Source: Escherichia coli
Lineage (GTDB): Bacteria; Pseudomonadota; Gammaproteobacteria; Enterobacterales; Enterobacteriaceae
NCBI RefSeq assembly: GCF_003334815.1
Contig: NZ_QOWO01000007.1
Length of the DNA stretch: 64,000 nucleotides
Direction: 5' to 3' (one strand)
Made by a program: the position numbers and the translations under genes. Positions 1-8,497 of this stretch are shown one piece after another; position 1 is the first letter of the stretch, and each line of letters starts with the position of its first letter. The notes below the pieces were generated by a model. The model was not told the DNA's origin and searched no databases. It saw only the letters and a program-made list of their open reading frames with translations.

Positions 1-869
1 TGGAAGAGCTTGCCGCCGACGTACAGCGCAATTTCAGGCAGTGCGGCATCCGGATCTTTAAAGCGGCTGATATCGGGAAAGAACAGCTGCATAAAGAACG
101 ACGCCGCGATAAAGATAACGCCACCGTAGACCGCCGTCAGGAAGATGGCTTTCGGGATCACGCGTGCGGCGTCCGGCGTCTCTTCCGAAAGCGTGGTCAC
201 CGCATCGAAACCGAGGAAGGAGAAACAGACAATCGTCGCCCCGGTAATAATCGGGATCAGGTGCGCGTTCTCGCTGATAAACGGCTGAAGTGACCAGACG
301 GTGCCAACGCCTTCTCCTTTATGCAGTCCCTGAACTACCAGGAAGATAAACACCACCATGATGGAGATTTGCACCAGTACAAACAGGGTATTGAAGTTAG
401 CGACCAGGTTGACGCTCTTCAGATTCGCGGCGGTTAAAATGGCGACGAAGGTTACCACCCACACCCACGGCGGCACTTCCGGGAAGAGGGCGGAGAGATA
501 GATTTTCGCCAACAAGACGTTAATCATCGGCAAAAAGAGATAATCCAGCAGCGATGACCAGCCGACCATAAATCCGACGTGCGGGTTAATCGACTTTTGC
601 GCGTAGGTATAGGCCGAACCGGCCTCCGGAAACTGGCGAACCAGTTTGCCGTAGCTGATAGCGGTAAACAGCACACCCGCCAGCGCCAGCAAATAGGACG
701 CCGGAACGTGACCGTCGCTAATGCCGGAGACAATACCAAAAGTATCAAATACGGTCATCGGCGTGAGATAGGCCAGACCCATCATCACCACCTGCCACAA
801 TTTCAGTGATTTTCGCAGACGGGTTTTGCCGGGTTGCGCAGCAATATTCAGTGGTGAATTAATAGCCAT
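1..869 (-). CDS. puuP: Putrescine importer PuuP (APC-family permease), N-terminal part only; gene runs off the window start
   Basis: Minus-strand frame from ATG at 869-867 translates [35 protein letters not shown]... followed by multi-TM hydrophobic sequence; missing from ORF track because no stop lies inside the window. Confidence 0.85.
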
Positions 870-1171
870 AATTGCTGCCTCCCCTGCGTAATAAGGTTTG
901 CGGTCGTGTCGACCTGAAATCAAACCTGTTTAGCAAGGGAAGCAAAGGGGGCGGAGTCCAGTCAGTAGCAGGAGGGGCGCATACGCAGCCTCCCTCGCCA
1001 TGCGGGGATTTAATCATCGGCATTATCTCATTTCCTCGTCACAGTCTTAATCGTTAACGGAAGCCCGTTGCCGCCCGCGCTCCATAACGCGACATCCGGG
1101 AAATGTCTGGATTACCAGCAAATGTCAGGCCTGGCTCCGCTCAGGCCGATGAAACAACCCCGCAAGGGGTA

Positions 1172-2590
1172 TTACGCGTTTTTCAACATCCACTCAATTT
1201 CTGTTTCTGTGATGAGGCGCTCAAACTGCAACAGCTCATCATTTTTACAGGCGTGATAGACATGGCAGAAGCGTTCGCCTAAATAGCGGCGCAGGTGATC
1301 ATTCTCGATAAACTCACCCAGGGCATCGCTCTGGCGAATCGGAAAGGGTAAGCCTTCCTGTTCCAGCCCGTTGCCTTCGACTTCTTCCTGCAACGGCAGC
1401 TCGTTATCAAGGCCATGCAAAATACCGGCAAAAATCGCTGCCATCACCAGATATGGGTTGGCATCGGCACCCGCCACGCGATATTCCACGCGGTGATTAT
1501 GACGGTCGCCGCACGGAATACGCAGGGCGACGGTGCGGTTGTTATGGCCCCACGACGCCTGCGTCGGCACATACATTCCCGGCTGGAAGCGGCGATACGA
1601 GTTCACGTTTGGTGCCAGCAACGCCATCGACGACGGCATCAGGTCAATCATCCCGGCGAGCATCTTTTTCAGCAGCGGCGAATCTTCGCCTTCCGCGTCA
1701 GAAAGCACGTTCTCGCCACGATTATTTTGCATACTGATATGGATATGCATTCCGCTGCCCGCGTGCTCTTCATACGGCTTCGCCATAAAAGTGGCGTGCA
1801 TCTTATGCTTTTCTGCCATCAGACGCACCAGGCGTTTTAGTGCCAGCGCATCATCGCAGGCTTCCAGCACGTTATCAGTATGGTAAAGGTTGATTTCAAA
1901 CTGACCCGGCGAGGCCTCAGCGACCGCGCCATCTGCCGGAATCAGCTGTAACTGCGCCAGTTCATCAATATCATTGAGCACGTCGGCGAAGTGGTTGAGG
2001 TTATCAACGGAGTAAACCTGGCTTTGTGTATTGCGGTCATCGGTGCCAGGCGCGCAGGGCGGTTGCAGATACCCTTCAGCGTCGCGCTGGCGATCCAGTA
2101 AATAGAACTCCAGCTCTACCGCTACGACCGGGAACAATCCGCGCTGGCGCAGCTGCTGCCACAGGCGGTTAAGAACGTTCCGCGGCTCAACGTCAAAGGG
2201 AGCGCCATCTTCATCGACCATGGTCAGGAGCATCTGACCGATAAACTCTGGATCGGCGGCAGAAGGAGTTAAGGAACCGAGAACAGGAACACAGGTACGA
2301 TCCGGCTCGCCCATTTCCTGACCCAGACCTGCTTCTTCTACTACGTTGCCCAGAATATCCATTGCAAATACCGAGGCCGGGAAATAACACCCTTTCTCGA
2401 GCTTCTTCAGGCTTGAAACAGGAATACGCTTTCCACGGAAGCAACCATTTAAATCGGTAAGTAAAACATCAACATATTGCGTATTCGGGTAGCGCTCCAG
2501 GTAGCGTTTCACTTCCTGCGTAAAGGCGCTACCCCGCCTCTCTTCTGACTGCTGAACAAAGTTCTCTACTTCAACGATATTGGTTTCCAT
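1172..2590 (-). CDS. puuA: Gamma-glutamylputrescine synthetase (glutamine synthetase family), 472 aa
   Basis: ORF 1172..2668 trimmed to the ATG at 2590 (METNIVEVENF...); the 26 upstream codons are ORF-finder read-through. Confidence 0.93.
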   Translation of the reverse strand: METNIVEVENFVQQSEERRGSAFTQEVKRYLERYPNTQYVDVLLTDLNGCFRGKRIPVSSLKKLEKGCYFPASVFAMDILGNVVEEAGLGQEMGEPDRTCVPVLGSLTPSAADPEFIGQMLLTMVDEDGAPFDVEPRNVLNRLWQQLRQRGLFPVVAVELEFYLLDRQRDAEGYLQPPCAPGTDDRNTQSQVYSVDNLNHFADVLNDIDELAQLQLIPADGAVAEASPGQFEINLYHTDNVLEACDDALALKRLVRLMAEKHKMHATFMAKPYEEHAGSGMHIHISMQNNRGENVLSDAEGEDSPLLKKMLAGMIDLMPSSMALLAPNVNSYRRFQPGMYVPTQASWGHNNRTVALRIPCGDRHNHRVEYRVAGADANPYLVMAAIFAGILHGLDNELPLQEEVEGNGLEQEGLPFPIRQSDALGEFIENDHLRRYLGERFCHVYHACKNDELLQFERLITETEIEWMLKNA

Positions 2591-2633
2591 GATTCTTCGC
2601 CTTTGGTTTGTTTTCCGCTCGTTATCAAAGCGT

Positions 2634-2648
2634 AAAATATAATGACCA
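2634..2648. promoter_or_regulatory. Candidate PuuR operator copy (AAAATATAATGACCA) in the puuA/puuD divergent control region
   Basis: 15-mer differs at one position from the copy at 2806-2820; a degenerate third copy (AAAAATATTGAACA) lies at about 2731-2745; matches the PuuR recognition motif as I recall it from the literature. Confidence 0.5.
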
Positions 2649-2801
2649 CCATTCGAATCTGTATGCAAACTAAATGTTTGTCAAATGTTAAATTGAGTTT
2701 GCAAAAATGAAAACCCACTGCTAGATTGAAAAAATATTGAACATAAAGGTCATTTAAAGCGCAGTAATGGCGATAATTTAGTCCACTTTGTGAGATTGAG
2801 C

Positions 2802-3566
2802 ATGGAAAATATAATGAACAATCCGGTTATCGGTGTCGTAATGTGCAGGAACAGGCTTAAGGGTCATGCGACCCAGACTCTGCAAGAAAAGTACCTGAAT
2901 GCCATCATCCATGCAGGCGGCTTGCCTATTGCGCTACCACATGCGCTGGCGGAACCGTCATTACTTGAACAACTTTTGCCGAAACTCGATGGCATTTATC
3001 TTCCTGGTAGTCCCAGCAATGTGCAGCCGCACCTATATGGTGAAAACGGCGATGAGCCTGACGCCGATCCCGGGCGTGATCTTCTGAGCATGGCGATAAT
3101 TAATGCCGCACTCGAAAGGCGCATCCCCATTTTCGCCATCTGCCGGGGTTTACAAGAACTGGTGGTGGCAACCGGTGGTTCGTTGCATCGCAAGCTGTGC
3201 GAACAGCCTGAATTGCTGGAACATCGGGAAGATCCCGAACTGCCGGTGGAACAGCAATATGCACCGTCGCATGAAGTTCAGGTTGAAGAGGGGGGATTAC
3301 TGTCTGCGTTGTTACCTGAATGTAGCAACTTTTGGGTAAACTCTCTACATGGACAAGGGGCGAAGGTCGTTAGCCCACGGTTGCGTGTTGAAGCTCGCTC
3401 GCCGGATGGCTTAGTTGAGGCGGTTAGCGTCATCAATCATCCTTTTGCGCTGGGCGTACAGTGGCACCCGGAATGGAACAGTAGCGAGTACGCGCTTTCG
3501 CGTATATTGTTCGAGGGCTTTATCACCGCTTGTCAGCACCATATCGCTGAAAAACAGCGACTCTGA
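2802..3566 (+). CDS. puuD: Gamma-glutamyl-GABA hydrolase (class I glutamine amidotransferase-like), 254 aa
   Basis: ORF 2790..3566 (GTG-extended) trimmed to ATG 2802 (MENIMNNPVIGVV...). Confidence 0.93.
   Translation: MENIMNNPVIGVVMCRNRLKGHATQTLQEKYLNAIIHAGGLPIALPHALAEPSLLEQLLPKLDGIYLPGSPSNVQPHLYGENGDEPDADPGRDLLSMAIINAALERRIPIFAICRGLQELVVATGGSLHRKLCEQPELLEHREDPELPVEQQYAPSHEVQVEEGGLLSALLPECSNFWVNSLHGQGAKVVSPRLRVEARSPDGLVEAVSVINHPFALGVQWHPEWNSSEYALSRILFEGFITACQHHIAEKQRL
2806..2820. promoter_or_regulatory. Candidate PuuR operator copy (AAAATATAATGAACA) overlapping puuD codons 2-7
   Basis: Exact 15-mer starting 4 nt after the puuD ATG; near-identical copy at 2634-2648. Confidence 0.5.
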
Positions 3567-3592
3567 CCACTACAGTTTAAGGAAATGCAAAT

Positions 3593-4150
3593 ATGAGTGA
3601 TGAGGGACTGGCGCCAGGAAAACGCTTGTCGGAAATCCGCCAGCAGCAGGGGCTTTCACAACGTCGTGCCGCCGAACTCTCCGGGCTGACTCACAGTGCT
3701 ATCAGTACGATAGAACAAGATAAAGTCAGCCCTGCCATCAGTACGCTGCAAAAGCTGCTGAAGGTGTATGGTCTGTCACTCTCGGAATTCTTTTCCGAGC
3801 CGGAAAAACCTGATGAGCCGCAGGTCGTCATTAATCAGGACGACTTAATTGAGATGGGTAGTCAGGGTGTGTCAATGAAGCTGGTTCATAACGGTAACCC
3901 GAATCGCACGCTGGCGATGATCTTTGAAACGTACCAGCCGGGCACAACCACTGGGGAAAGAATTAAGCATCAGGGTGAGGAAATAGGCACTGTACTGGAA
4001 GGTGAAATTGTTCTGACGATTAATGGTCAGGATTACCACCTCGTCGCGGGGCAAAGTTATGCCATTAATACCGGCATCCCGCACAGTTTCAGTAATACGT
4101 CGGCAGGTATTTGCCGAATTATCAGCGCCCATACGCCCACCACGTTTTAA
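3593..4150 (+). CDS. puuR: Putrescine-utilisation repressor PuuR (XRE-type HTH plus cupin domain), 185 aa
   Basis: ORF 3593..4150; N-terminal HTH (LSQRRAAELSGLTHSAISTIEQ), C-terminal cupin-like; AAGGA Shine-Dalgarno at 3579-3583. Confidence 0.93.
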   Translation: MSDEGLAPGKRLSEIRQQQGLSQRRAAELSGLTHSAISTIEQDKVSPAISTLQKLLKVYGLSLSEFFSEPEKPDEPQVVINQDDLIEMGSQGVSMKLVHNGNPNRTLAMIFETYQPGTTTGERIKHQGEEIGTVLEGEIVLTINGQDYHLVAGQSYAINTGIPHSFSNTSAGICRIISAHTPTTF

Positions 4151-4225
4151 TCTTTTTGTTCTGTAAGCCGGGTAAGCGCAATGCGCCCGGCAATCTATAC
4201 ACAAAATCATTCAAGTTGCATCAAG

Positions 4226-4310
4226 GCGGCAAGTGAGCGAATCCCGATGAGCTTACTCAGGTAAGTGATTCGGGGGAGCGAACGCAGCCAAGGCAGAGGC
4301 GGCTTGAAGG
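4226..4310. repeat. ERIC/IRU-like imperfect palindromic intergenic repeat
   Basis: GAGCGAATCCCGATGAGCTTACTCAGGTAAGTGATTCGGGGGAGCGAACGCAGCC: imperfect inverted arms, resembles the enterobacterial ERIC consensus core; lies in the puuR-puuC spacer. Confidence 0.4.
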
Positions 4311-4424
4311 ATGAAGTGTATATAAAGAATGTCGCCAGAAATAAACGGGCATACGGCCCGGGGATCTCTGCGCCCTGACGTTCACAAACTGCATATATCT
4401 GATAGACGTGAAACAGGAGTCATA

Positions 4425-5912
4425 ATGAATTTTCATCATCTGGCTTACTGGCAGGATAAAGCGTTAAGTCTCGCCATTGAAAACCGCTTATTTATTAACG
4501 GTGAATATACTGCTGCGGCGGAAAATGAAACCTTTGAAACCGTTGATCCGGTCACCCAGGCACCGCTGGCGAAAATTGCCCGCGGCAAGAGCGTCGATAT
4601 CGACCGTGCGATGAGCGCAGCACGCGGCGTATTTGAACGCGGCGACTGGTCACTCTCTTCTCCGGCTAAACGTAAAGCGGTACTGAATAAACTCGCCGAT
4701 TTAATGGAAGCCCACGCCGAAGAGCTGGCACTGCTGGAAACTCTCGACACCGGCAAACCGATTCGTCACAGTCTGCGTGATGATATTCCCGGCGCGGCGC
4801 GCGCCATTCGCTGGTACGCCGAAGCGATCGACAAAGTGTATGGCGAAGTGGCGACCACCAGTAGCCATGAGCTGGCGATGATCGTGCGTGAACCGGTCGG
4901 CGTGATTGCCGCCATCGTGCCGTGGAACTTCCCGCTGTTGCTGACTTGCTGGAAACTCGGCCCGGCGCTGGCGGCGGGAAACAGCGTGATTCTAAAACCG
5001 TCTGAAAAATCACCGCTCAGTGCGATTCGTCTCGCGGGGCTGGCGAAAGAAGCAGGCTTGCCGGATGGTGTGTTGAACGTGGTGACGGGTTTTGGTCATG
5101 AAGCCGGGCAGGCGCTGTCGCGTCATAACGATATCGACGCCATTGCCTTTACCGGTTCAACCCGTACCGGGAAACAGCTGCTGAAAGATGCGGGCGACAG
5201 CAACATGAAACGCGTCTGGCTGGAAGCGGGCGGCAAAAGCGCCAACATCGTTTTCGCTGACTGCCCGGATTTGCAACAGGCGGCAAGCGCCACCGCAGCA
5301 GGCATTTTCTACAACCAGGGACAGGTTTGCATCGCCGGAACGCGCCTGTTGCTGGAAGAGAGCATCGCCGATGAATTCTTAGCCCTGTTAAAACAGCAGG
5401 CGCAAAACTGGCAGCCGGGCCATCCACTTGATCCCGCAACCACCATGGGCACCTTAATCGACTGCGCCCACGCCGACTCGGTCCATAGCTTTATTCGGGA
5501 AGGCGAAAGCAAAGGGCAACTGTTGTTGGATGGCCGTAACGCCGGGCTGGCTGCCGCCATCGGCCCGACCATCTTTGTGGATGTGGACCCGAATGCGTCC
5601 TTAAGTCGCGAAGAGATTTTCGGTCCGGTGCTGGTGGTCACGCGTTTCACATCAGAAGAACAGGCGCTACAGCTTGCCAACGACAGCCAGTACGGCCTTG
5701 GCGCGGCGGTATGGACGCGCGACCTCTCCCGCGCGCACCGCATGAGCCGACGCCTGAAAGCCGGTTCCGTCTTCGTCAATAACTACAACGACGGCGATAT
5801 GACCGTGCCGTTTGGCGGCTATAAGCAGAGCGGCAACGGTCGCGACAAATCCCTGCATGCCCTTGAAAAATTCACTGAACTGAAAACCATCTGGATAAGC
5901 CTGGAGGCCTGA
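4425..5912 (+). CDS. puuC: Gamma-glutamyl-gamma-aminobutyraldehyde dehydrogenase (NAD(P)-dependent aldehyde dehydrogenase), 495 aa
   Basis: ORF 4329..5912 trimmed to ATG 4425 (MNFHHLAYWQDK...) with AGGAG at 4415-4419; ALDH motifs EAGGKSA and NQGQVCIAGTR. Confidence 0.93.
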   Translation: MNFHHLAYWQDKALSLAIENRLFINGEYTAAAENETFETVDPVTQAPLAKIARGKSVDIDRAMSAARGVFERGDWSLSSPAKRKAVLNKLADLMEAHAEELALLETLDTGKPIRHSLRDDIPGAARAIRWYAEAIDKVYGEVATTSSHELAMIVREPVGVIAAIVPWNFPLLLTCWKLGPALAAGNSVILKPSEKSPLSAIRLAGLAKEAGLPDGVLNVVTGFGHEAGQALSRHNDIDAIAFTGSTRTGKQLLKDAGDSNMKRVWLEAGGKSANIVFADCPDLQQAASATAAGIFYNQGQVCIAGTRLLLEESIADEFLALLKQQAQNWQPGHPLDPATTMGTLIDCAHADSVHSFIREGESKGQLLLDGRNAGLAAAIGPTIFVDVDPNASLSREEIFGPVLVVTRFTSEEQALQLANDSQYGLGAAVWTRDLSRAHRMSRRLKAGSVFVNNYNDGDMTVPFGGYKQSGNGRDKSLHALEKFTELKTIWISLEA

Positions 5913-5913
5913 A

Positions 5914-7194
5914 ATGACCGAACATACCAGCAGTTACTACGCCGCCAGTGCGAATAAATATGCACCATTCGACACGCTGAATGAGTCAATCACCTGCGAC
6001 GTTTGCGTGGTTGGCGGCGGCTATACCGGGCTCTCCTCCGCGCTGCATCTGGCGGAAGCGGGCTTTGACGTAGTGGTTCTCGAAGCCTCACGCATCGGCT
6101 TTGGCGCAAGCGGGCGCAATGGCGGACAGCTTGTGAACTCCTACAGCCGCGACATCGACGTGATCGAAAAAAGCTACGGCATGGACACCGCCCGTATGCT
6201 CGGCAGCATGATGTTCGAAGGTGGTGAGATCATCCGCGAACGTATCAAACGTTATCAGATTGACTGCGACTACCGCCCCGGCGGCCTGTTTGTGGCGATG
6301 AATGATAAACAGCTCGCCACACTTGAAGAGCAGAAAGAGAACTGGGAACGCTACGGCAATAAACAGCTGGAATTGCTGGACGCCAACGCCATTCGCCGTG
6401 AAGTAGCCAGCGATCGCTATACCGGTGCGCTGCTGGATCACAGCGGTGGGCATATTCATCCGCTAAACCTTGCCATTGGCGAAGCGGACGCCATCCGCCT
6501 CAACGGCGGGCGCGTGTATGAACTTTCTGCCGTGACGCAGATCCAGCACACCACGCCAGCCGTTGTGCGAACTGCCAAAGGTCAGGTGACGGCGAAGTAT
6601 GTGATTGTCGCCGGGAATGCGTATCTGGGCGATAAAGTAGAGCCGGAACTGGCGAAACGCAGCATGCCGTGCGGCACGCAGGTGATCACCACCGAACGGC
6701 TGTCGGAAGATTTAGCCCGTTCGCTGATCCCGAAAAACTACTGTGTGGAAGACTGTAACTATCTGCTTGATTACTACCGTCTTACCGCCGACAACCGCCT
6801 GCTGTACGGCGGCGGCGTGGTCTACGGCGCGCGCGACCCGGATGACGTTGAGCGCCTTGTGGTGCCGAAACTGCTGAAAACCTTCCCGCAGCTGAAGGGC
6901 GTGAAAATTGATTACCGCTGGACGGGCAACTTCCTGCTGACCCTGTCGCGTATGCCGCAGTTTGGTCGCCTCGATACCAACATCTATTACATGCAGGGCT
7001 ACAGCGGCCACGGCGTGACCTGTACTCATCTAGCCGGACGTTTGATTGCCGAACTGCTGCGCGGCGACGCCGAACGTTTCGATGCCTTCGCCAATCTGCC
7101 GCATTACCCGTTCCCCGGCGGGCGCACGCTGCGTGTGCCGTTTACCGCGATGGGCGCGGCGTATTACAGCCTGCGCGATCGTCTGGGCGTTTAA
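5914..7194 (+). CDS. puuB: Gamma-glutamylputrescine oxidase (FAD-dependent), 426 aa
   Basis: ORF 5914..7194; FAD-binding VVGGGYTGLSSA; starts 2 nt after the puuC stop. Confidence 0.93.
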   Translation: MTEHTSSYYAASANKYAPFDTLNESITCDVCVVGGGYTGLSSALHLAEAGFDVVVLEASRIGFGASGRNGGQLVNSYSRDIDVIEKSYGMDTARMLGSMMFEGGEIIRERIKRYQIDCDYRPGGLFVAMNDKQLATLEEQKENWERYGNKQLELLDANAIRREVASDRYTGALLDHSGGHIHPLNLAIGEADAIRLNGGRVYELSAVTQIQHTTPAVVRTAKGQVTAKYVIVAGNAYLGDKVEPELAKRSMPCGTQVITTERLSEDLARSLIPKNYCVEDCNYLLDYYRLTADNRLLYGGGVVYGARDPDDVERLVVPKLLKTFPQLKGVKIDYRWTGNFLLTLSRMPQFGRLDTNIYYMQGYSGHGVTCTHLAGRLIAELLRGDAERFDAFANLPHYPFPGGRTLRVPFTAMGAAYYSLRDRLGV

Positions 7195-7231
7195 TTTCCG
7201 ATTAACCGTGAAGAGTCAAAAGGTGTGAAAC

Positions 7232-8497
7232 ATGAGCAACAATGAATTCCATCAGCGTCGTCTTTCTGCCACTCCGCGCGGGGTTGGCGTGATGTGTAAC
7301 TTCTTCGCCCAGTCGGCTGAAAACGCCACGCTGAAGGATGTTGAGGGCAACGAGTACATCGATTTCGCCGCAGGCATTGCGGTGCTGAATACCGGACATC
7401 GCCACCCTGATCTGGTCGCGGCGGTGGAGCAGCAACTGCAACAGTTTACCCACACCGCGTATCAGATTGTGCCGTATGAAAGCTACGTCACCCTGGCGGA
7501 GAAAATCAACGCCCTTGCCCCGGTGAGCGGGCAGGCCAAAACCGCGTTCTTCACCACCGGTGCGGAAGCGGTGGAAAACGCGGTGAAAATTGCTCGCGCC
7601 CATACCGGACGCCCTGGCGTGATTGCGTTTAGCGGCGGCTTTCACGGTCGTACGTATATGACCATGGCGCTGACCGGAAAAGTTGCGCCGTACAAAATCG
7701 GCTTCGGCCCGTTCCCTAGTTCGGTGTATCACGTACCTTATCCGTCAGATTTACACGGCATTTCAACACAGGACTCCCTCGACGCCATCGAACGCTTGTT
7801 TAAATCAGACATCGAAGCGAAGCAGGTGGCGGCGATTATTTTCGAACCGGTGCAGGGCGAGGGCGGTTTCAACGTTGCGCCAAAAGAGCTGGTTGCCGCT
7901 ATTCGCCGCCTGTGCGACGAGCACGGTATTGTGATGATTGCTGATGAAGTGCAAAGCGGCTTTGCGCGTACCGGTAAGCTGTTTGCCATGGATCATTACG
8001 CCGATAAGCCGGATTTAATGACGATGGCGAAAAGCCTCGCGGGCGGGATGCCGCTTTCGGGCGTGGTCGGTAACGCGAATATTATGGACGCACCCGCGCC
8101 GGGCGGGCTTGGCGGCACCTACGCCGGTAACCCGCTGGCGGTGGCTGCCGCGCACGCGGTGCTCAACATTATCGACAAAGAATCACTCTGCGAACGCGCG
8201 AATCAACTGGGCCAGCGTCTCAAAAACACGTTGATTGATGCCAAAGAAAGCGTTCCGGCCATTGCTGCGGTACGCGGCCTGGGGTCGATGATTGCGGTAG
8301 AGTTTAACGATCCGCAAACGGGCGAGCCGTCAGCGGCGATTGCACAGAAAATCCAGCAACGCGCGCTGGCGCAGGGGCTGCTCCTGCTGACCTGTGGCGC
8401 ATACGGCAACGTGATTCGCTTCCTGTATCCGCTGACCATCCCGGATGCGCAATTCGATGCGGCAATGAAAATTTTGCAGGATGCGCTGAGCGATTAA
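7232..8497 (+). CDS. puuE: 4-aminobutyrate aminotransferase (class III PLP aminotransferase), 421 aa
   Basis: ORF 7232..8497; class-III aminotransferase sequence recognised. Confidence 0.93.
   Translation: MSNNEFHQRRLSATPRGVGVMCNFFAQSAENATLKDVEGNEYIDFAAGIAVLNTGHRHPDLVAAVEQQLQQFTHTAYQIVPYESYVTLAEKINALAPVSGQAKTAFFTTGAEAVENAVKIARAHTGRPGVIAFSGGFHGRTYMTMALTGKVAPYKIGFGPFPSSVYHVPYPSDLHGISTQDSLDAIERLFKSDIEAKQVAAIIFEPVQGEGGFNVAPKELVAAIRRLCDEHGIVMIADEVQSGFARTGKLFAMDHYADKPDLMTMAKSLAGGMPLSGVVGNANIMDAPAPGGLGGTYAGNPLAVAAAHAVLNIIDKESLCERANQLGQRLKNTLIDAKESVPAIAAVRGLGSMIAVEFNDPQTGEPSAAIAQKIQQRALAQGLLLLTCGAYGNVIRFLYPLTIPDAQFDAAMKILQDALSD

Follow-up and report, generated by a model that had tools for sequence, protein, structure and literature searches.

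The repressor PuuR of Escherichia coli binds the puuA and puuD promoter regions and is released from them by putrescine, as set out in passages of PMC9951944, PMC7901475, and PMC9397018 that cite Nemoto et al. 2012, and the same study (J Bacteriol 194:3437), as cited in PMC9951944, is the source of four DNA-binding motifs in the puuA-puuD spacer. The regulator, its four sites, and derepression by putrescine were published in 2012 and have already been put to use in putrescine biosensors. The operators described in that work for E. coli K-12 share with the locus analyzed here the organism, the DNA (identical to that of MG1655), and the regulator, and there is no material difference between the two. 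Among more distant relatives, PauR, PsdR, and ErfA, XRE-cupin repressors of Pseudomonas aeruginosa, resemble PuuR in combining a helix-turn-helix with a cupin domain and in serving as local repressors of adjacent metabolic genes; they bind palindromic operators as dimers and are released by a metabolite of the pathway, which in the case of PauR is putrescine or cadaverine (PMC7901475). The consensus differs among the three, and their sites lie mostly in the core promoter (PMC7901475). In the puu cluster, by contrast, two of the four are found past the transcription start, one of them intragenic.

DNA looping is the mode of action of such intragenic auxiliary operators as galOI (+53.5, inside galE) and lacO2 (+401, inside lacZ), and the puu arrangement is like both in placing one operator inside the first structural gene, together with promoter-proximal or upstream partners, as well as in the several-fold weakening of repression that follows loss of the outer operators. 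It differs from them in that looping and oligomerisation have been demonstrated for GalR/HU and LacI but only proposed for PuuR, and in that the intragenic site (S3 below) stands at non-integral numbers of helical turns from two of its partners (S2 and S4). The PurR operator in purB, at about +242 in the coding region, acts instead as a transcriptional roadblock, and it shares with the puuD site the binding of a single repressor dimer beyond the promoter, inside the coding sequence; purB, however, is without a promoter-proximal PurR site, whereas puuD has S2, and because of S2 a roadblock is not needed to explain the repression of puuD. Beyond this prior work, the present analysis contributes comparative conservation, an explicit placement of the sites against the mapped transcription start, and a codon-level constraint.

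The DNA under study is one stretch of 64 kb, referred to throughout as the window, of which positions 1-8000 are the E. coli putrescine-utilisation cluster, as identified by megablast against 4372 complete E. coli genomes together with the RefSeq annotation and the MG1655 record; all 283 compared bases of the control-region stretch are the same as in MG1655. The minus strand of the cluster carries puuP and puuA, and the plus strand carries, in this order, puuD, puuR, puuC, puuB, and puuE. The genes that matter here are:

1172 to 2590, minus strand: puuA, glutamate-putrescine ligase coding sequence (RefSeq annotation, identical E. coli DNA)
2802 to 3566, plus strand: puuD coding sequence, 254 aa (RefSeq; NCBIfam NF008471 aligned over residues 1-254 of 254)
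3593 to 4150, plus strand: puuR coding sequence, XRE-HTH plus cupin repressor (NCBIfam equivalog NF007408, 385 bits; RefSeq)

The divergent spacer between puuA and puuD measures 211 bp (2591-2801), and the repressor gene belongs to the same operon as puuD, 0.8 kb downstream of the operators. Annotation and NCBIfam equivalogs identify a divergent puuA-puuD(R) control region in a PuuR-encoding genome. A sequence-based structure search found no solved structure of PuuR.

The preliminary description of this DNA had called attention to two 15-mers, AAAATATAATGACCA at 2634-2648 and AAAATATAATGAACA at 2806-2820, and both are present on the plus strand at exactly these coordinates; the second begins, as it had also stated, 4 nt past the A of the puuD ATG (2802-2804), and reaches from codon 2 into codon 7, where it ends on the first base. 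A degenerate third copy, which it had placed at 2731-2745, does exist, but not in that register, where 6 of 15 positions are mismatched; the correct register is 2729-2743 (AAAAAATATTGAACA), with 2 mismatches. Across the three copies the mismatches to AAAATATAATGAACA number 0, 1, and 2, and these three are the only 15-mers with two mismatches or fewer among the 128,000 positions of the window. When the 211-bp spacer was shuffled 20,000 times with its dinucleotides preserved, extra copies averaged 0.004 per shuffle and two or more of them never appeared, and the repeats are therefore real and not the product of chance. The second and third copies remain similar for 4 nt further to the left (2725-2743 against 2802-2820, 19 nt, 84% identical, beginning ATTG and ATGG, respectively), and the repeat unit is a 20-bp dyad that starts at the ATG itself rather than a 15-mer direct repeat.

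We compared 80 loci with PuuR orthologues (76-100% identical), one genome per species; 58 of them have the divergent puuA / puuD-puuR arrangement with a spacer of about 212 bp and were aligned with the window, giving 59 sequences with PuuR identities above 84%. The alignment consists of separate conserved blocks amid variable sequence, and four of the blocks share one pattern, from which a position matrix was built (four site classes over 59 loci); the scores given below are in-sample, the matrix having been made from the same sites.

2630 to 2649, unstranded: PuuR operator S1, GCGTAAAATATAATGACCAC; 20.9 bits; holds the first 15-mer; -104 to -85 from the puuD transcription start
2725 to 2744, unstranded: PuuR operator S2, ATTGAAAAAATATTGAACAT, the "degenerate" third copy; 22.4 bits; conserved; -9 to +11 of the puuD promoter
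2767 to 2786, unstranded: PuuR operator S4, ATGGCGATAATTTAGTCCAC; 20.0 bits; +34 to +53 from the puuD transcription start
2802 to 2821, unstranded: PuuR operator S3, ATGGAAAATATAATGAACAA; 24.2 bits, the top score of the window; +69 to +88; holds the second 15-mer; MG1655 1361120-1361139

Each of the 15-mers first noted makes up the centre and right half of one operator (S1, S2, or S3), and S4 is a fourth copy absent from that earlier account. Each of the four operators keeps its position and spacing (95, 41/42, and 35/34 bp) across the 59 Enterobacterales loci: the S1 core AATATAATG.CCAC is kept, with an S1-S2 distance of 95 bp in 53/59, and the S4 core ATAATTTAGTCCA is conserved, with S4 standing 41-42 bp away from S2 and 34-35 bp away from S3 in every locus but one. 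The top-scoring site of a locus is S3 in 33 of 57 and S1 in the other 24, and never another site. In terms of the helix, the distances S1-S2 and S2-S4 amount to 9.0 and 4.0 turns and are in phase, whereas S4-S3 (34-35 bp) and S2-S3 (76-77 bp) come to the non-integral values of 3.3 and 7.3 turns, respectively.

Symmetrising the matrix yields the operator consensus ATGGACAATATATTGTCCAT, which matches what we take to be the 20-bp PuuR consensus of Nemoto 2012 and EcoCyc. Set against its reverse complement, the matrix gives a correlation of r = 0.82, a value reached by none of 5000 column shuffles, and a 26-column version gives r = 0.81 in register and r of 0.33 or less when shifted by 1-4 columns; by our own count, single E. 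coli sites have only about 5 of 10 self-complementary positions each. The dyad form agrees with dimer binding of the kind seen at the operators of XRE-cupin repressors, in opposition to a published statement that denies the PuuR site a palindromic form and sees no evidence for a dimer (PMC12645834). The RegulonDB matrix for PuuR is about 22 positions long. S1 to S4 score between 20 and 24 bits, and because the next best site in the window reaches only 14, the other intergenic regions of the cluster hold no comparable site; the matrix scan found no extra PuuR-like site upstream of puuP, puuC, or puuE or elsewhere in the 64 kb. A look-alike inside puuD (3090-3109), which shares ATGGCGATAATT with S4, was rejected: its 12-13 bits fall short of the maximum obtained from shuffles, and other genera show synonymous drift at this place. 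The matrix, the conservation, and the identity of the locus agree in supporting the earlier assignment of the repeats to PuuR-type operators of the puuA-puuD control region, and the sites are very probably the known PuuR operators of this spacer. That S1 to S4, with the boundaries given here, are the four published motifs is probable from the citing paper, its primer design, and the match to the 20-bp consensus. The arrangement is already known, and what it represents is textbook regulation rather than a new element.

The start of the puuD transcript has been mapped in two independent experiments. A directed 5' RACE experiment for ycjL places it at -68 from the ATG (Mendoza-Vargas 2009, PMC2760140 supplement), and TSS-seq gives position 1359076 with a 68-nt 5' untranslated region and a listed upstream sequence that ends at the same base (Kim 2012, PMC3415461 supplement). 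The elements predicted for ycjL in the former study are a -10 of 'GCTAGATT' and a -35 around 'GAGTTTGCA' (PMC2760140 supplement). The K. pneumoniae list of Kim 2012 is without a puu entry, and we found no puu start in the text of Ettwiller 2016 or Yan 2018. Transferred to the window, the puuD promoter reads:

2699 to 2704, plus strand: puuD -35 hexamer TTGCAA, within the -35 region predicted for ycjL by Mendoza-Vargas 2009
2719 to 2727, plus strand: puuD extended -10, TGC TAGATT (hexamer TAGATT at 2722-2727), the -10 of Mendoza-Vargas 2009
2734, plus strand: puuD transcription start, from the two published experiments, -68 from the ATG

Of the 59 loci, 38 have TTGCAA as the -35 hexamer and 13 have TTGAAT; TGCTAGATT is found in 52/59, and the offset from -35 to -10 is 23 bp (spacer 17) throughout the 59. 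For the opposite direction, the alignment suggests the following elements:

2671 to 2692, unstranded: near-invariant block AAATGTTTGTCAAATGTTAAAT, with TGTTT/TGTTA 11 bp apart, ArcA-box-like; includes the putative puuA -35
2684 to 2679, minus strand: putative puuA -35 TTGACA (TGTCAA in 43/59 loci; the remainder, TTGCAA or TTGAAA on the minus strand, mostly -35-like)
2656 to 2661, minus strand: putative puuA -10 CAGATT, 17 nt after TTGACA, by our own reading

Sites for ArcA and FNR have been reported in the puuA-puuD spacer, according to passages of PMC9397018 (citing Partridge 2006) and PMC3798270. Positions 2 (A, the complement of T2660) and 6 (T, the complement of A2656) of the puuA -10 hexamer fall in columns that are near-invariant, with conservation in 98% or more of the 59 loci. 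On this reading of the sequence, the puuA mRNA would start near 2649, and S1 would occupy about +1 to +20 of the puuA transcript.

With these starts in place, S2 covers the -10 and +1 of the mapped puuD promoter, a core-promoter position that S1 would share by way of the putative puuA promoter. S3, at +69 to +88, lies outside the core promoter, and S3 and S4 (+34 to +53) both fall in the transcribed region past the footprint of the initiating polymerase. The sequence of S3 could also be read in another manner, in which its TATAAT (2810-2815) is a promoter -10, paired with TTGTGA (2788-2793) over a 16-nt spacer, and the repeats are promoter elements; a promoter scan does match this pair at 10 of 12 positions, but one such match is the level of shuffled sequence (0.9 expected), a transcript begun near 2822 would leave out the puuD start codon, the -35-like hexamer lacks conservation, most genera have TATATT for the -10, and both data sets of mapped starts give puuD a start only at -68. 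We rejected a promoter within S3 on the grounds of the chance-level scan match, the non-conserved -35-like hexamer, and the mapped starts, and consider it highly improbable.

The relationship between S3 and the beginning of puuD deserves closer attention. One operator does overlap the initiation region of puuD, as the preliminary description had it, the first base of S3 being the A of ATG 2802, and the ribosome-binding site lies directly upstream:

2792 to 2795, plus strand: puuD Shine-Dalgarno, GAGA in E. coli and GAGG in most genera, 6 nt upstream of the ATG

The alternative start at ATG 2814, which had been put forward as the way in which the site might come to sit in the 5' untranslated region, does not survive the comparison, in which ATG 2802 is invariant (59/59) and codon 5 is TTT in 40/59. 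Because ATG 2802 is invariant and ATG 2814 is missing from most genera, S3 is truly intragenic: it opens with the puuD start codon and spans codons 1-7. The encoded residues 2, 5, 6, and 7 are variable (MENIMNN, MGNIFDK, MVDIFYR, and others), whereas every locus has the rare ATA as codon 4 and no substitution occurs at the third base of codons 3, 4, or 6; conservation at degenerate third positions within codons 8-13 is 44-86%. The invariant nucleotides of S3 are those that S1, S2, and S4 have in common. In Rahnella, about 13 residues are inserted into PuuD behind residue 6, and the protein still begins MGNIF/MGNIS on ATGGGCAATATAT(T/C)TTCCAC behind GAGG, and second puuA-puuR loci of Serratia, which are without puuD, keep ATGGGCAATATATTTTCCAA (sometimes GTGG...) 89-136 bp upstream of puuR, where the retained operator heads a variable open reading frame of 11-42 codons. 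S3 is constrained as DNA.

One might suppose instead that 2802-2821 is conserved for coding or for translation initiation, as an A/U-rich open start whose likeness to the upstream 15-mers is incidental. The segment is indeed A/T-rich and overlaps the start codon, and the leader RNA is without unusual structure, which would suit an open initiation region: the puuD leader and start (2734-2850) fold no more stably than shuffles do (z = +0.77), and an RNA element in this stretch, which we rejected as a candidate, is unlikely for the same reason. Such a reading nevertheless fails to account for amino acid residues that vary while synonymous third positions and a rare ATA do not, for conserved nucleotides that coincide with those of three other sites, for the persistence of the element where puuD has been deleted, and for repeats that the shuffles of the spacer did not once reproduce, and we attach next to no credence to it.

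As regards the function of the four sites, evidence comes from reporter fragments of a Corynebacterium biosensor paper, which cites Nemoto et al. 2012 and mentions four PuuR motifs, and whose primers we placed on the window. PpuuDF (2591-2839) and PpuuAF (2826 down to 2591) contain all four sites, PpuuDS (2658-2801) contains S2 and S4 only, and PpuuAS (2714 down to 2591) contains S1 only; since the primers reach 2826 and 2839, the field already extends its "full-length" promoters into puuD and thereby captures S3. Repression by PuuR was 36-fold for PpuuDF against 6.9-fold for PpuuDS, a comparison in which S1 and S3 are lost together, the host is Corynebacterium, and the translation context is altered.

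We propose that, without putrescine, PuuR dimers would occupy the operators, with S2 and S1 blocking RNA polymerase directly, and with S1 and S3, the two strongest sites, flanking the weaker S2 and S4 at fixed spacing, where they may raise or lock occupancy through cooperative binding or looping in the manner of galOI and lacO2; any physical block that S3 presents to an escaping polymerase would be a secondary effect, and putrescine would free PuuR and let both operons fire. The flanking layout with its conserved spacing and the 5-fold loss of repression in the fragment that lacks both S1 and S3 together suggest a stabilising effect of the outer sites on occupancy of the promoter sites. The non-integral turns between S4 or S2 and S3 disfavour simple face-to-face looping to S3, and the chances of a cooperative or looping role for S3 appear to us to be evenly balanced.

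The preliminary description had expected PuuR at the intragenic site to act as a roadblock rather than at the promoter. The first half of that expectation stands insofar as the site does lie beyond the promoter, at +69 to +88; the contrast with promoter action does not, given S2 on the -10/+1 and a transcription start at -68, and because S2 sits on the mapped puuD promoter, ordinary promoter occlusion is present. In its strict form, the idea is that PuuR at S3 mainly obstructs elongation, some 65-70 nt into the puuD transcript and independently of the other sites. S3 is well clear of the polymerase footprint at the promoter and is the best consensus match both in E. coli and in the 33 loci counted above, and the roughly 5-fold drop in repression on loss of S3 and S1 would be explained equally well by this mechanism, but that comparison does not separate S3 from S1. 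Helical phase is of no concern to a roadblock, so the out-of-phase 34-35 bp between S4 and S3 mildly favours it, whereas the strict spacing of four sites across genera, which it does not require, and the repression at initiation that S2 already affords each mildly disfavour it. We judge an elongation block that is the main action of S3 and independent of the other sites to be rather unlikely; a pure roadblock at S3 is possible, and cooperative binding or looping is equally likely.

Returning to the proposed mechanism, the left half-site ATGG of S3 supplies the start codon, and the operator would in this way also fix the first codons of PuuD (M-x-N/D-I). A tentative joint reading, which we think falls somewhat short of probable, is that S3, not S2, may be the primary high-affinity operator, serving as a loop anchor or an elongation roadblock from +69 to +88; that the demands of its sequence may have settled, across Enterobacterales, both the puuD start codon and the opening four or five codons (M-x-N/D-I-F/M, the rare ATA being invariant); and that the puuD-less second loci of Serratia keep the operator, with its Shine-Dalgarno, heading a short open reading frame before puuR. 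In the accessible literature we found no statement of an operator-dictated N-terminus of PuuD.

For the puu cluster itself, the outcome is a cleaned-up map in which a 20-bp dyad occurs four times, the puuD transcript starts at -68, the promoter-proximal site is the copy that had been called "degenerate", and the start codon is ATG 2802. For users of the promoter, full-length PpuuD sensors, which carry S1 and S3 in addition, repress five times better than shortened ones. For Enterobacterales at large, the point is a modest evolutionary one, namely that an operator lying in the first codons of puuD has placed the N-terminus of the protein under constraint ever since the cluster has been present in the group.

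The interval between the back-to-back -35 hexamers of the puuA and puuD promoters (an inferred TTGACA on the minus strand, 2684-2679, and TTGCAA on the plus strand, 2699-2704) holds a near-invariant block, AAATGTTTGTCAAATGTTAAAT, which the alignment of fetched loci encoding PuuR orthologues places within window 2664-2703. This block contains TGTTT and TGTTA, 11 bp apart, in an ArcA-box-like arrangement, and is enclosed by a 12-nt inverted repeat (TGCAAACTAAAT and ATTGAGTTTGCA), the arms of which lie at 2664-2675 and 2692-2703. ArcA and FNR sites in the puuA-puuD spacer have been reported in the literature (PMC9397018, citing Partridge 2006; PMC3798270), which also describes direct repression of puuA and puuDR by ArcA.

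An exact 12-mer, ATGGCGATAATT, occurs both in the PuuR operator S4 (2767-2778) and inside puuD (3090-3101, codons MAII); because the synonymous positions of the puuD copy are not kept in other genera, this internal copy is probably a chance occurrence and was rejected as a candidate.

Kim 2012 (supplementary file 6) gives the puuD orthologue of K. pneumoniae MGH78578, KPN_01020, a length of 753 nt, compared with 765 nt for the E. coli gene, so that translation is annotated from codon 5, the second ATG. To judge by the conserved ATG and the Shine-Dalgarno sequence, this gene model appears to lack four codons. Rahnella PuuD has 267 aa (L076, L079 and L081; locus position 4193 onward), with an insertion of about 13 residues immediately after the operator-encoded MGNIF or MGNIS(S/T), past which the N-terminal remainder, YRPIIGVVMC, resumes. 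Serratia species carry a second locus in which puuA and puuR are divergent and puuD is absent (L058, L059, L062, L064, L065, L067 and L072; locus positions about 4865-4912). At 89-136 bp upstream of puuR these loci keep an operator of the S3 type together with a Shine-Dalgarno sequence and a short ORF. This ORF, which begins MGNIFS, is variable (11-42 codons), with GTG in place of ATG in two of the loci; what survives there is a remnant of puuD or else an upstream ORF.

Of 5426 complete E. coli genomes, about 1050 gave no match to the puuA-puuD region (window 2400-3000), and thus a sizeable minority of strains lack the cluster; six matches were plasmid-borne. One fetched contig, CACSKA010000001.1 (L025), labelled Chryseobacterium sp. 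18061, carries a typical enterobacterial puu locus. Its PuuR shares 95% identity with the E. coli protein, and its spacer resembles the one in Citrobacter sp. 18056, which comes from the same project; the assembly is probably mislabelled or contaminated.

A separate puuP transcription start has been mapped at window about 1015 (Kim 2012, PMC3415461). One further annotated feature is the following:

About 859-1023, minus strand: small YmjE-family ORF between puuA and puuP, overlapping the puuP start (RefSeq annotation).

A second plus-strand transcription start, 1359392 (window about 3050), lies within puuD, with 18 reads versus 5 at the puuD promoter, and was attributed to puuR with a leader of 543 nt (Kim et al. 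2012, PMC3415461). This start may represent an internal promoter that allows PuuR-independent expression of puuR.
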